Shown piece by piece: positions 18,001 through 24,000 of a DNA stretch of 64,000 nucleotides. Location: positions 200,962-264,961 of the forward strand of contig CAYMBN010000001.1 of NCBI GenBank assembly GCA_964388715.1, in the 5' to 3' direction. Every line of letters starts with the position of its first letter. The stretch's first letter is position 1. The DNA is from an uncultured Methanosarcinales archaeon (GTDB lineage Archaea > Nanobdellota > Nanobdellia > Woesearchaeales > CAYMBN01). A program made the position numbers.

Positions 18001-21000
18001 AATCTGTTGCAACTGTGAATTCTGAAGCATCTTTTGCAAGTTTTTTTAAAACATTAAGATATTTTTTTGAGAATTTTGCTGTTTTACTTGTTTCTGAAGT
18101 TGGTTTCCATTCAATGTCAAATATTGGAAAACCGTATTTTTCGCCTGATTTTTGGGTGAGTCCGTACAAGTGACCAACTGCACATCCAACGATAATATCT
18201 TTGTTTCCATGTGTTATTTCATAATAAGGTACTTTATTAACTGATCTTTTGATAGGTTTACCGTCGGCAAGTGCTTGTGCAATTTTTAATGCTGCTTTTG
18301 GTTTTTCGGAAATTATTAATTCATATTTTGTCATTAAAGTTTACAAAAGTGATTAATCCTTTATAAATGTGTCGAAATGGTGATTTTTTTGGATAAATTT
18401 TTAAAGGAATCGCTCTTTTTTTGTATTAAAATGTTTAAATTCCTAAAAGAAAAACTGAAGAAAGGACTTGATCTATTTAGTAAGAAGGTTGAAGAAGATG
18501 TTGTTAGTGAGGAAGTTGTTGAAGAAAAGGTTGAAGAAGTTAAAGTTGAAGAGAAAAAGGTTGTTGAGGAGTTTAAAGATAGGATTCCTACTGCTTATGA
18601 ACTAGCGCAACGTAAGAAAAAGAAAGAAGTTGAAGAGAAAAAGGAAGAAGTGATTGAAGAGCTTGAACCTGAACCTGAGGTTGAAGTGGAGGAGAAAAAA
18701 CCTAGTGCTGCTGAGTTATTAAAGCAGGTTGATGAAAAACCTCAAGTAAAGATTCCTACTGCTGCTGAAATACTTGATCAAGCTGTTGAAGAAAAAGAAA
18801 AGTTGGAGAAGAGAATACCAACTGCAAGAGAAGTTGTTGAAAAATTAAGAGAAGAGAAAAAAGAGCCTGAGAAAAAAGGGTTTTTTGGGAAATTAAAAGA
18901 TAAGATTGTTACTAAAAAGATTGATGAGAAACAGTTTGAAGAATTGTTTTGGAATCTTGAGTTAATTCTTTTGGAAAATAATGTTGCTGTTGAAGTTATT
19001 GAAAAGATTAAGAGTGATCTTAAGGAAGAACTTGTTGATAAACCTATTCAAAGAGGAAAAGTTTTGGATAGAATTTCTGGAGTTTTGAAAAACAGTGTTG
19101 AAGGATTGTTTGATGTTGAACAGTTTGATTTGTTAGAAAGAGTTAAGGTTAAGAGTCCTTTTATTATTTGTTTTGTTGGTATTAACGGTTCTGGAAAAAC
19201 AACAACTATTGCAAAGATTGCTCAGTTGTTAATGGATAATGATCTTAAATGTGTGATGGCTGCTGCTGATACGTTTAGAGCAGCTTCAATTGAACAGTTG
19301 GAAGAACATGCTAATAATTTAGGTGTTAAAGTAATTAAACATGATTATGGTAGTGATGCTGCTGCTGTTGCGTTTGATGCAGTACGTTATGCAGAATCAA
19401 AAGGTACTGATGTTGTTTTGGTTGATACAGCTGGTAGATTACAGTCAAATGTTAATTTAATGGATGAATTGAAAAAAGTTATTAGAGTTGTTAAACCTGA
19501 TTTAACATTGTTTGTTGGAGAATCTATAACTGGAAATGATTGTGTTAATCAAGCAAGAGAATTCAATGAAATTGTTGGAATTGATGGAATTATATTATCT
19601 AAAGCAGATATTGATGAGAAAGGTGGTGCTGCTATTTCAGTAAGTTATGTTACTAAGAAGCCTATATTGTTTATTGGTACAGGTCAAGAGTATAAAGATC
19701 TGAAAGAATTTAATTCTGATGTTGTGGTTGAGAGTTTAGGATTGGAAAGTTAAATTCTGTTGTTATGATTTCTAAATCTTGTAATTCTGGTACTGCATCT
19801 ACAATGTAAAGGTCTGTGATGATAGTTTTTGGTTCTGGTAACCTTTCTAAATAAATACTAAAGTCAGGGTAAAACATGACTGTTTCAGCAAATCTATCTT
19901 TAATACACTTACGCATCATTTTTTGTATAGCTTCTGGTTGATCATCAATTGTGGAATTTATCATATCTAAAAAATCCTGTATTTCCTTAGGAATCTCAGG
20001 TTCTTTTTGTAGATAAACAGTATACTTTGTTGGTTTAAAATTAGGTGGATAAAAATACAAAGGCAAGGATTCTGAAACTTGATTTGCTCTAAACCTTTCT
20101 TCATAGTATTCTTCTATTTGTTTAAGTTTGTCTCTATTCATAGGAAAACTTTCAATATTTTGAACTGCTTGTTCTAATACTGAACTAACATTTAGGTGAG
20201 GTAATTGTACTTTTGATTTTTCACCAAGTTCTTTAATTTGACGCTTTGAAATTTGAGCATGTGCAATTGTAGTCATAAGAGGTATTAAAAATTCTAAATT
20301 TTTGGGAATAGTCTTGTCAAGCAAAATAGAGGGATTACAAAATAAATATTTGACATTTCGGTAGAAATATTCTGCATCAACAAGATCTTTTATTTCTTCT
20401 TTTTCTAATTTTAATGCTGTTCTTAAAATGGTTAATGGAAGAAAAGTTGTAAAATAATCAATAGATCCAAATTCTTTTATTAAGCTTTCAGATTCATGAA
20501 AAAAATCTCTAATAGGTTGTAAGTAAGTCACAACACCTATTGTTTCAGGTAGATCTGGAACTGTCTTTCTCAGGTGCTCATAGTTAACCCTTAATTTTTC
20601 TCTGGTATTTTCACATAATCCATACATAGAACGATACATTTCTGTATTATCAAATCTAAACAAATCTGAATTCGGAGTGTATATTATGTGTATTGGTTTC
20701 ATTTTTATTGTTAGAAATCACCTTTTTTATTGAAAATAGGAGGTTTGGTTTATAAATTTATTCAAACTCAACTTTTCCTTTGTAATAAATGCCTTTATGG
20801 AGTTTGACTGGGCGCCAGTTGTCTATGATTAGGTTTGCATTGAGCCATTTAGAAAGTTCTTTTGGGTTGCCTATTGTTGCGCTTAATGCTATTATTTGTG
20901 CGTGAGGGAGGAGTTCTCTTAGGATTGTTAAGAGGATTTCTAGGGTTGGACCTCTGCTGATGTCATTTAATAAGTGGACTTCGTCAACAATTATTGTAGA

Positions 21001-24000
21001 AACATCTCTGAGCCATGGTGAGTGGTGGCGAATCAAGGAATCTAATTTTTCAGAAGTTGTTAGGATGAGGTCATAGTTCGCTAAGTAAGGTTCTGCACTG
21101 TCCATGTCTCCTATTGAAAGTGCGATTCTGCAGAGATGTTGGTATTTTCGTTTGAAATCTTTGAATTTTTCGTTTGCTAAGGATTTGAGTGGAACAATGT
21201 AAATGGTTTTTCCGATTCTGTTGATTATGTTTTTTAATGCAATTAGTTCTGCGATTAATGTTTTACCTGAAGCAGTTGGTGTGCAGACAAGAAGGTTTTT
21301 TTTGTCAAATAGTCCTTTGTTAATTGCTTTGGTTTGACATTTTCTTAGTTCTGCTATGTTTTCTGCTTTTAGAACTGTGTATAATTGTTCTGGGATTTGT
21401 TTTTTTATGTCTTTTAGATTCATTTTTCTTATTAAAGGGCGCCGGGGGCGGGATTTTCACCCGAGGTTCAAATCAATGAAGCCAAGATATTTGAACCCGC
21501 ATGATCCGGTGAGATCACTTAGTTCTAAACTAAGCGTCATACCAAATTAGACAACCCCGGCATTATGGAAAAGTTTAAATATGAGCTTAACTTATAATAC
21601 TTTGATCCGGTGGAGAGTCAAGGTACATACCAAATTAAGCGACCCTGGCTTTTTTTCTTTTTTTATTATTGAATTAGAATTAGTTTATATATTTTTACCG
21701 TGTTTGTCTAGTGGGGAGTGGTTATTCAACATGACCATTCTTTACTTTTTCTACTGTTACTTGTTTTAGTTGGAGGTTGTTGTAGTAGACTTTACTGTCT
21801 CTTATTTTGAGTTTTATTTTTTTGAATTCCTCGAATGTTATTTCTGAGGTGTTGTTTTTTAGGTTTTCTGGGTTTATTTGAGTGCCTGGTTTTGCTTTTG
21901 TTGTTAATATCCCTACATTTTTCTTTTTGTCAATGCCTGCTAATAACATTCCTTGGCTTTCAATTCCTCTAAGTTTAGCTGGTTTTAGGTTTGTGACTAC
22001 AATTAGGTTTTTGTTTTTTAGTTGGTCTTTTGTGTAGTAACCTTTAAGTCCTGCGACAAGTTGTCGCTTTTCTTTTCCAAGGTTGACTTTTAATATATAG
22101 AGTTTGTCTGCTTTTGGATGTTGTTTTACATCTGTTATTTTTGCTACTTTTAGATTGAGTGGGAATTTTTCTGTTGTTTTTTTGCCTGCAAACATTTTTC
22201 TGAATTTTTGCATATCTTTGTCTTCGAGTTTTTGGAATAAAACCTTTGCTTTGTTGATTTTGTGTGATTTTTTTATTGAGATTTTGTTAAGGTCTTTTAA
22301 TGTAAGGTCTTTTATGTTAAGTTGTTGTTGGATTGAAGCTGATGTTTGTGGTAAGAATGGACTGATTAGGATGCTTAGGTCTTTGACTACATTGATTAAA
22401 GTGGCTATTGTGTTTGGCGCAGTGTCTTTATTTTTCCATGGTTCGTTTTCTTGGAAATATTGGTTTGCAAGTTTGCTTATTGCCATGATTTTTCTTAATG
22501 ATTCTTTAAGTTGGATCTTTGACATTAGCTCTGTTACTTTGTCTGATTCTTGTTGTACTTTTTTTAGGAATGTTTTGTCTGGTTTAAAGTTTGGAACTTG
22601 ATTGTTGAAAAATCTGTTTGTGAATGTGATTGTTCTGTTTACTAAGTTTCCAAAGTTTGCAATAAGTTCTTTATTTAATTTTGCTTGGAAATCTTCCCAA
22701 ATAAATTCTGTATCTGTTTTTTCTGGACGGTTTACAATGATGTAATAACGCCAAACATCTGCTGCAATACCTGTTGCTTTTGCATCGTCGCCAAAAACAC
22801 CGATGTTTCTTGACTTTGAGAAATGGCCTGATTCATAATTAAGGTATTCGTTAACAGAGAGTTCTCTAACTAAAGTGTAAGGATCTTTTGTTCCTATTAG
22901 GAATCCTGGGAATAAAATTGTGTGGAATGGAATGTTATCTTTGCCCATGAACTGAACTAGTTTAACATCTTTGTTGTTTTTCCACCAGTTTTGCCAGTTA
23001 GGTTTGTGTTCTTTTGTGATTCCAATGTATCCAATAGGTGCGTCAAACCATGAGTAAAATACTTTATCTTCATATCCTTTTTTTGGCACAGGTATTCCCC
23101 ATTTAAGGTCACGTGTTATGCAACGTGGTTTAATACCTTCCTTAAGCCAGGCATAAGTCATTGTTCTTGCGTTTTCTGACCAGTTTTTTTCAACTGTTTT
23201 GATCCAGGATTTTAATTGAGGTTCAAGTTTTGGTAAGTCAATGAATAAATGGTGTGTTTCTTTTACTTCTGGGGTTGAAGAGCAGATTTTGCATTTTGCG
23301 TTGATTAATTCTGTTGCATTCAATAGTTTACCACAGTGTTCGCATTGGTCACCACGTGCTTCTTTGTAATTGCAAAAAGGACATTCGCCTTCAACAAAAC
23401 GATCTGCTAGAAATTTATTGCATTTTTTACAGAATGTTTGTTCAAGTATGTCTTCTTTGATAAAACCGTTTTTGTCGAGTTTTTTGAAAATATCAATTGT
23501 AACTTCTTTATTTGGTTTAGAGCTGGTTCTTCCGAAGCAGTCAAAGTCGCAATTGAACCAATCATAGATTTCTTTTTGGAGTTTATAGTATTTATCTGTG
23601 ATTTGTCTTGGTGTGAGACCTTCTTCTAATGCTTTTGTTTCTGTTGTGGTTCCGTGTTCATCTGTTCCGCACACGCTGATAACGTTTTCTCCTTTAAGCC
23701 TGAGAAATCTAGTATAAACATCTGCACTTAGCACGCATACCATTGTTCCAAGATGTGGCAGATTGTTTACATAAGGTAATGCGCTTGTTACGAGTATTTT
23801 TTTGGTCATACTCTGAAGAAATGAGGTTTTTATTTATAAATGTAATGATTAAATTCCTAGATATTCTACTAGTTGATTTAGGACTTTTTCAAAACGTTGG
23901 TTTACTTCATTATGAGTTATATCACAAGAAATATTTCTTAAAACATAATTCTTAGAACCTGTTCTATTAAAGTTTATGTTAACAAAATCATGGTTTATTT

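Follow-up and report, generated by a model that had tools for sequence, protein, structure and literature searches.

An open reading frame (ORF) at positions 20758–21423 (minus strand) of the window, i.e., of the whole stretch of 64,000 nucleotides analysed here from a genome of the order Woesearchaeales, encodes the first RecA-like motor domain of the DNA-repair helicase Hel308 only, which raises the question of where the remainder of the enzyme is encoded and whether two separate proteins may form one motor. SF2 helicases are taken as single-chain motors with an ATP site formed between two RecA domains that are covalently joined. Indeed, canonical Hel308 or Hjm, as solved for P. furiosus (2zj2), A. 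fulgidus (2p6r/9b15) and S. solfataricus (2va8), is one chain of about 700 amino acids, whereas two polypeptides from unlinked genes are found here. We consider it quite likely that Hel308 is in this lineage a two-subunit enzyme born from an old gene fission, and, with the cut placed between its two motor domains, the ATP-driven motor probably has to be assembled from the two separate proteins.

The gene of the N subunit is intact and runs over 221 codons from an ATG to a TAA stop codon (20758–20760, minus strand) located at the fission point; it comprises the RecA1 domain and an RPV linker strand. Pfam recognises DEAD (1.3e-31) and ResIII (2.3e-11) in this N-half, and the top match among solved structures is P. 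furiosus Hjm/Hel308 (2zj2, 720 aa), over residues 7–216 (E = 3.3e-62). Motifs Q, I, Ia, Ib, II and III are present, among which motif I (Walker A, PTASGKT, residues 49–55), motif II (DEVH, residues 147–150) and motif III (SAT, residues 181–183) were read from the translation at 21259–21279, 20974–20985 and 20875–20883, respectively, all on the minus strand. The C-terminal tail (residues 205–221, PVKLHKGIYYKGKVEFE; 20761–20811, minus strand) aligns with the linker region of fused sequences. Contigs from public DNA runs, which may stem from the source sample, span positions 20300–21028 including the stop codon with 0 differences, and 77 of the 80 public loci nearest to this gene have a stop 0–23 codons past the point where the match ends.

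The rest of the enzyme is encoded on another contig (C8, 31858–33411, corresponding to 5859–7412 of locus L001, minus strand) by a 517-aa ORF that holds RecA2 with motifs IV, V and VI, the winged helix, the ratchet and the HhH domain. This C-half matches residues 228–713 of 2zj2 (E = 2.6e-87) and contains the Pfam domains Helicase_C (8.3e-13), HTH_61 (4e-06), Helicase_dom4_arc (6.3e-27) and HHH_5 (9.9e-05). The Hel308-type NCBIfam model PRK02362 (739 positions) is covered from 1 to 218 by the N-half and from 223 to 717 by the C-half, with 277 and 428.2 bits against an equivalog cut-off of 887, so that neither half alone reaches it. As for the single-chain enzymes, the best NCBIfam models are Hel308-type equivalogs, and the two halves are contiguous, non-overlapping and colinear parts of one Hel308 that together retain its five domains and every SF2 motif. 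The initial annotation had assigned RecA1 alone to the first gene and the remainder to the second, with the cut between the two motor domains; the matches bear out this assignment, and alignment with fused sequences locates the cut in the inter-domain linker between RecA1 and RecA2, with no residues lost. At the junction, the N-half ends in VEFE directly followed by its stop, and the C-half MAKTIKIPTMHNNYVIDLAFDT lines up with the linker GKEKINIPEKFSEPAVQLAVNT of fused sequences.

The source genome (G000) is a metagenome bin in 31 contigs, in which tblastn detects one N-half and one C-half, the sole additional match being a Lhr-type helicase on contig C4. Both genes are internal to their contigs, and the runs of N at C1:3826–3925 and C8:37768–37867 are 218 kb and 4.4 kb away from them. 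Directly upstream of the N-half, and ending about 17 nt before its ATG, lies a tRNA-like gene (21440–21561, minus strand), which is context rather than part of the helicase: a tRNA on 21480–21561 reaches 24.3 bits in Rfam, short of the gathering score (29), ARAGORN finds no tRNA in this region, and by our own reading the gene reaches 21440 and is interrupted by an intron in its T-arm region. Downstream, a 330-aa ORF has no Pfam or NCBIfam family and matches in only 1 of the 120 other genomes of the order, and was therefore rejected as a conserved operon partner.

The distribution of the split was assessed in 121 genomes of the order, one per family and G000 included. A strong match to the N-half (E ≤ 1.7e-50) is found in 109 of them, always in an open frame of 197–350 aa without internal stops and never in a fused one, and 10 additional genomes of the order from a class-wide search have N-half frames of 215–249 aa. 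A split reported by the initial annotation for 28 of 30 families is thereby extended to 108 of the 120 other families. A true C-half is present in 113 of the 121 genomes; identities across the order are 48–73% for the N-half and 41–62% for the C-half, mostly without internal stops. Both halves occur together in 105 genomes and are adjacent in none: they lie on separate contigs in 95 and share a contig in 10, with 29, 37, 54, 92, 93, 170, 275, 307, 332 and 423 kb between them. The halves are thus unlinked throughout the survey, in agreement with the earlier claim that they lie far apart, and the places given for the C-half in G016, G025, G022, G007 and G028 were reproduced. Some relatives carry inteins in the C-half, at motif V, and many genomes of the order encode an unsplit Ski2-like paralogue of about 650 aa.

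One half only was found in 12 of the 121 genomes, namely the N-half in G010, G024, G083 and G095, and the C-half in G019, G037, G047, G052, G057, G102, G105 and G116. G095 and G105 are both rated 100% complete, and searching again with a fused query still left G095, G105, G052, G010 and G037 with a single half. These genomes may reflect assembly gaps, or real losses that were survived by one half.

In other orders of the class, 69 of the 83 N-half matches lie in frames of at least 671 aa, and each of the 20 sister-order loci that were fetched has one frame of 699–757 aa matching both halves. Because these orders have the fused gene, the split is read as a derived state that arose by fission along the stem of the order. 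Candidates for the same cut outside the order were rejected, as the short frames of G217, G147, G159, G214 and G152 are cut off by contig ends and G198 is fused with one in-frame TAG. An independent second fission, with the cut directly after motif VI, is present in three genomes of other orders. At a threshold of E ≤ 1e-30, the N-half goes unmatched in 92 of the 201 genomes of the class, so that Hel308 looks dispensable in many relatives.

The residues of the ATP site have been retained on both sides of the cut. Among 31 split and fused sequences, the N-half is invariant at Q30, at P49, T50, S52, G53, K54 and T55, at D147, E148 and H150, at S181, A182 and T183, as well as at R204, P205, V206 and L208 in the tail or linker region; among 30 such sequences, the C-half is invariant at T114, L117, G120, Q151, G154, R155, G157 and R158. 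Terminal branches leading to split sequences (0.29–0.9) fall inside the range of fused ones (0.04–1.33); synonymous sites are saturated at amino-acid identities of 50–70%. A single origin of the split is not rejected (AU p = 0.315), and in the free tree the fused G210 sequence nests within the split clade, on unstarred branches. Altogether, the split is inherited and conserved in the clade rather than a sporadic break.

We propose that each half would have a promoter of its own and be translated as a separate protein, and that the two proteins would then associate non-covalently. Among the upstream regions, 7 of 10 for the C-half and 4 of 11 for the N-half have a TATA-like hexamer in the −30 to −21 bin, and no other 10-nt bin holds more than 2. 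In G000 itself the pattern is less clear, as the N-half has a TATA-like box just 6–13 nt from its ATG, right after the tRNA-like gene, and the C-half comes directly after two ORFs with no gap. The public runs listed for positions 20300–21900 are 8 DNA runs of 2 studies, with no RNA run among them; four of the DNA runs were used and yielded contigs only. The model of the complex gave ipSAE values of 0.85, 0.85 and 0.84, against 0.00 for the best of 3 controls, a pass that the solved single-chain structures of Hel308 may explain; among benchmark pairs, 116 of 157 solved complexes and 2 of 215 mismatched pairs attain the mark that was passed. The model comprises 185–190 contacts, of which at least 95% agree between runs, with a partner pLDDT of 89, and the most confident contacts join residues 209–213 of the N-half to residues 165–171 of the C-half. 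The C-terminal strand of the N subunit is accordingly predicted by the model to join the RecA2 sheet of the C subunit, while RecA1 would pack against the winged helix and the ratchet. A composite ATP site would thus be rebuilt from the Walker A and DEVH motifs of one chain and the motif VI arginines of the other, and the pair would work as a normal 3'–5' Hel308.

Several other readings have to be weighed against this two-subunit enzyme. An artefact or a decaying gene (mis-assembly, frameshift or pseudogene remnant) might be suspected in a 31-contig metagenome bin, the more so as some extra breaks in relatives are contig ends or gaps of N: those of G037, G072 and G102, and of G127 in another order, are contig ends or a 10-N gap, and a three-piece Hel308 within the order was rejected on this ground. 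However, the cut recurs at the same place, bounded by clean stop and start codons, in 119 genomes of the order, including single-contig ones, halves sharing a contig are 29–423 kb apart, the motifs are invariant, and most of the matches across the order, at the identities given above, have no internal stop. Assembly and frameshift errors, which the initial annotation had also dismissed, are ruled out because the single-contig genomes G016, G025, G084 and G096 show separated halves, 37–423 kb apart; at the level of the sequence data this reading is already refuted, and we give it next to no credence. Scarcely more probable is a covalent joining of the products, whether at the protein level through a trans-splicing split intein or at the RNA level through trans-splicing of the kind seen for the split tRNAs of Nanoarchaeum. 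Nanoarchaeota do provide precedents with split tRNAs and a split-intein DNA polymerase, as described in two papers (PMC3491384, PMC3655853), and inteins exist at motif V in the C-half of some relatives. Here, on the contrary, both termini are free of surplus residues and lie edge to edge on the fused linker, the Pfam search of either half yields no Hint or intein domain, and the ORFs are separate with their own stop or start, which rules out a split intein; as no intein halves are found at the termini, any joining would be non-covalent. Nor is there a signal of RNA trans-splicing through complementary flanks in 10 genomes, where the sequence 3' of the N-half pairs with that 5' of the C-half no better for cognate than for mismatched flanks (mean duplex energy −27.09 and −26.95, respectively; sd 8.4).

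A less extreme alternative, which we nevertheless judge unlikely, is that the halves have diverged by sub- or neofunctionalisation and no longer form a joint motor; for instance, the C-half could bind forks or promote annealing independently of ATP, while the N-half could be an ATPase in its own right or the partner of another protein. Genomes with one half only, including the complete G095 and G105, would fit such separate roles, as would the lack of linkage and of conserved neighbours (the 330-aa ORF being all but confined to G000) and the unsplit Ski2-like paralogue. Yet 105 of 121 genomes hold the two halves together, and every residue that makes sense only in a composite ATP site is invariant in both, with Walker A, DExH and SAT in the N-half and QxxGRxGR in the C-half. 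Moreover, conservation extends to the tail crossing to RecA2 (R204, P205, V206 and L208), and branch lengths do not differ from those of fused genes.

Beyond the two-subunit enzyme itself, the fission may have been more than merely tolerated. Since the ATP site would exist only when two unlinked products meet, helicase activity could follow subunit supply, and the second independent cut after motif VI suggests that a closed-ring Hel308 with inter-domain strand exchange is easily rebuilt from pieces. It is conceivable, albeit doubtful, that the fission gave rise to a regulated SF2 motor that works solely as a heterodimer and whose activity depends on the supply of its subunits, the C subunit alone waiting on forks as an inactive clamp for the RecA1 subunit, and that closed-ring Hel308 is unusually easy to rebuild.

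Comparable cases come from fractured genes of other archaea. Split-intein fractured genes also yield one ancestral enzyme from two distant genes, but they carry an N-intein and a C-intein at the termini, whereas the Hel308 halves have neither; the split DNA polymerase of N. equitans is presumably such a case. The large helicase-related protein of N. equitans (NEQ003/NEQ409), which we take from its name to be Lhr, belongs to a different family from Hel308 and to a different order. Both are listed among the split genes of Nanoarchaeota in Table 1 of Podar et al. (2013; PMC3655853), the latter with a second representative (Nst172/Nst239), together with reverse gyrase. As far as they are described there, the large helicase-related protein and reverse gyrase resemble the split Hel308 as informational enzymes of genome-reduced DPANN archaea encoded by two unlinked ORFs, without intein and as a derived character, and the former is likewise an SF2 helicase. 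In the same description, the split sites differ between two nanoarchaea, whereas one site is fixed here across an order sampled at 121 families, the NEQ genes being compared by description. With its own start and stop for each ORF, contiguous parts and a fused gene in relatives (20 of 20 loci), Hel308 would fall within the non-covalent split-gene pattern of DPANN archaea.

Outside subscription journals and supplements, of which for example Table S1 of PMC10946056 could list halves, we found no paper on a split Hel308; similarly, none was found outside subscription journals that names "Hel308" together with "Woesearchae". Archaeal Ski2-like helicases have been surveyed in the literature under a filter that demanded 60% COG coverage or more, and sequences that were partial were left out (PMC10946056). 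Because the halves score below full-length cut-offs and would be subject to such a coverage filter, lineages can be wrongly scored as devoid of Hel308.

The split Hel308 takes the known set of split informational genes beyond Nanoarchaeales and provides a clean derived character separating the order from its sister orders. A whole order, sampled at 121 families, has long kept the two RecA domains on separate, unlinked genes. If activity were confirmed, this would represent a natural experiment in which the linker is dispensable and a ready system for the study of inter-domain communication; should closed-ring Hel308 indeed be unusually easy to rebuild, it would be a natural template for split, switchable helicases.

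The 221-aa open reading frame at positions 20758-21423 (-), running from ATG to TAA, had been annotated as the first motor domain of Hel308 alone, with the remainder of the protein encoded on contig C8, and both parts of this reading held. The best solved-structure match of this N-half was 2zj2 (residues 7-216, E 3.3e-62), followed by 2p6r, 9b15 and 2va8, and similarity to solved Hel308/Hjm was confined to the first 216-217 residues of the full-length proteins. It matched Pfam DEAD (1.3e-31) and ResIII, covered positions 1-218 of the 739 in the NCBIfam model PRK02362, and ends in ...KGKVEFE, immediately followed by the stop codon. 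The C-half, a 517-aa frame in the study genome G000 (G000:C8:31858-33411, or L001:5859-7412 in the fetched locus; -), aligned to 2zj2 residues 228-713 (E 2.6e-87) and PRK02362 positions 223-717, with Helicase_C, HTH_61, Helicase_dom4_arc and HHH_5 domains. Each half is present in a single copy (tblastn, all 31 contigs), the sole further match being an 860-aa Lhr-type helicase on C4. Both genes lie well within their contigs, clear of scaffold gaps; GC content is uniform over the N-half region, and contigs from public runs, which may stem from the source sample itself, are identical around its stop codon.

Aligning 11 N-halves and 11 C-halves with 20 fused proteins showed that the N-half ends 0-7 residues past the conserved WRPVxLxxG......F strand and the C-half starts about 10-15 residues ahead of the conserved (D/N)LALDT helix. 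The MAKTIKIPTMHNNYV of G000 aligned to the fused linker GKEKINIPEKFSEPA with neither loss nor gain of residues at the cut, leaving no space for intein halves, and none was detected by Pfam in either half. Whether from split or fused genes, the 31 N sequences share invariant motifs Q, I, II and III and an invariant RPV linker, and the 30 C sequences share invariant motifs IV, V and VI.

The claim of the initial annotation that the split is kept across the order was borne out by a survey of 121 genomes, each from a different family code and with G000 among them (every count drops by one without the unpublished G111). N-half matches at E <= 1e-10 occurred in 113 genomes, those of G006, G019, G105 and G116 being weak only and belonging to other helicases; every one of the 109 strong best matches (E <= 1.7e-50, 48-73% identity to relatives) lay in a short frame of 197-350 aa free of internal stops. 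Ten further genomes of the order from the class search likewise had short frames (215-249 aa). The C-half was matched in 117 genomes and truly present in 113, in frames of mostly about 500-570 aa; G006, G024, G083 and G095 gave only a ~650-aa paralogue. Both halves co-occur in 105 genomes and are adjacent in none of them: comparison of the two tables placed them on separate contigs in 95 and on one contig in 10, at distances of 29 kb (G021), 37 kb (G016), 54 kb (G118), 92 kb (G034), 93 kb (G097), 170 kb (G084), 275 kb (G022), 307 kb (G107), 332 kb (G025) and 423 kb (G096). Among the 80 nearest public loci, which probably overlap the surveyed genomes and do not form an independent set, 77 had an ORF stop 0-23 codons past the match end and lacked C-half homology within 1.5 kb downstream, and three were fused.

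A single half was found in 12 of the 121 genomes, two of them rated 100% complete, and a new search with a fused query did not recover the missing half in five. Some missed halves are expected with two genes and mostly fragmented bins, and real loss of one half may also have occurred. G095, where the C-half was not found, presents GC-rich, Arg/Pro/Ala-rich frames beside its N-half (L047 1-1560; G095:C21:18500-20060), unlike the remaining locus, and this contig may be chimeric.

Outside the order, the N-half matched 83 genomes of the class at E <= 1e-30, with identity up to 65%, and 69 of these frames were at least 671 aa. All 20 fetched loci held a single 699-757-aa frame matching both halves end to end. 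The 14 shorter frames were accounted for individually, and none stops at the junction of the order: three represent a second split type, G198 has a fused gene containing a single in-frame TAG, those of G217, G147, G127, G159, G214 and G152 hit a contig end, and those of G141, G164, G179 and G193 (loci not fetched) reach a contig end by coordinates, their 445-624 aa extending past the junction. Considered alongside the single-chain Hel308 known from Euryarchaeota and Crenarchaeota, these loci identify the fused state as ancestral and the split as a fission derived on the order's stem. No match at this threshold was obtained in 92 of 201 class genomes; many relatives therefore lack Hel308 or have a very divergent one.

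A 37-row tree, built quickly by maximum likelihood from 11 concatenated split pairs, 20 fused sequences, two rows of the second split type and, as outgroup, four paralogues, united all split rows in one group (SH-aLRT 94), inside which the fused G210 sequence was nested on unstarred branches. A single origin is not rejected: constraining the split rows to one clade lowered the log-likelihood by 4.94 units (AU p 0.315). The terminal branches of split rows are no longer than those of fused rows.

The second split type, found in G271, G212 and G238 from three families outside the order, is independent of the fission of the order. Its first ORF (373-394 aa) contains RecA1 and most of RecA2 and terminates exactly past motif VI (...GRAGRP*), and the second (349-366 aa), starting with M..K(Y/F)GEA..., carries the remainder of Hel308. 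The latter lies about 3 kb downstream in G271, with unrelated ORFs between, 25 kb off on the other strand in G212, and on another contig in G238. The two rows of this type were not sisters in the tree, although they fall in a poorly resolved part of it.

In some relatives motif V (TPTLAAG, C-half residues ~118-126) harbours an in-frame insert of about 480-540 aa, probably an intein, either in the C-half (G071:C5:134716-137856, G092:C1:2044-5112, G078:C37:9625-12630, G086:C31:9141-12087) or in a fused gene (G160:C3, L046; G204:C6), resulting in frames of 946-1246 aa. In L048 1469-3400 (+) (G055:C56), the C-half frame extends about 120 residues beyond its usual end (...ILDVCFGLGYNS...); by eye the extension resembles a SAM-dependent methyltransferase and may be a C-terminal fusion or reflect a lost stop codon. 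A further, unsplit Ski2-like helicase of 637-714 aa (L054 364-2334 (-), L055 377-2293 (+), L056, L057, L058), 33-39% identical to the N-half, occurs in many of the order's genomes; it was not found in G000. Its motif VI reads GRAGRRGxD, its best NCBIfam models are of Hel308 type, though far short of the cut-off (184 bits, cut-off 887), and by eye it looks Ski2/Mtr4/HelY-like; PMC10946056 counts zero COG4581 members in its own archaeal set.

In 7/10 C-halves and 4/11 N-halves a TATA-like hexamer lies 21-30 nt before the ATG, and every other 10-nt bin as far as -200 holds two at most. This clustering fits own promoters and leaderless mRNAs for each half, from which we infer that the two would be expressed separately. 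The signal is less clear for the two genes of G000 than for the set, and its C-half may instead come third in an operon, behind a gene resembling PEPCK (PF01293, 4.2e-44) and an 85-aa ORF (L001 7414-9167 (-)), as the stop and start codons of the three overlap or abut. Upstream of the N-half are a tRNA-like gene and methionyl-tRNA synthetase. The nearer of two tRNA-like sequences (21440-21561, -; Rfam tRNA 24.3 bits, gathering score 29) was missed by ARAGORN and, by eye, closes its acceptor stem only with a ~40 nt intron in the T-arm region; the farther (21600-21649, -) resembles a tRNA 5' portion only. Both could be non-canonical-intron or split tRNAs. Downstream by 55 nt starts an unrelated 330-aa ORF (19710-20702, -) without Pfam or NCBIfam family and with one weak match (G095, E 2.9e-11) among 120 other genomes of the order. 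Cognate-specific pairing of the halves' flanks, as an RNA trans-splicing guide, was not seen.

The complex model, under both alignments, gave ipSAE values of 0.85, 0.85 and 0.84 (best of three controls, 0.00), with 185-190 contacts, at least 95% of contacts agreeing between runs and a partner pLDDT of 89. The mark applied is attained by 116/157 solved complexes and 2/215 mismatched pairs, and passing it denotes likeness to the solved fold, not binding of two chains, because Hel308 was solved as one chain. The tightest contacts join N residues 209-213 to C residues 165-171, the strand right after motif VI; N residues 162-166 contact C 224-230 in the winged helix, and Walker A lies opposite motif VI. 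The two halves would probably work together as a helicase.

Nanoarchaeota are well known for split informational genes, among them those of a 'large helicase-related protein' and of reverse gyrase, according to Table 1 of PMC3655853 and to PMC6349945, and no published split Hel308 was found in a literature search that left supplements aside. New here are the evidence that sister orders have the fused gene, the mapping of the junction to the residue, the AU test and the second fission after motif VI, together with the negative RNA-pairing test and the controlled complex model.
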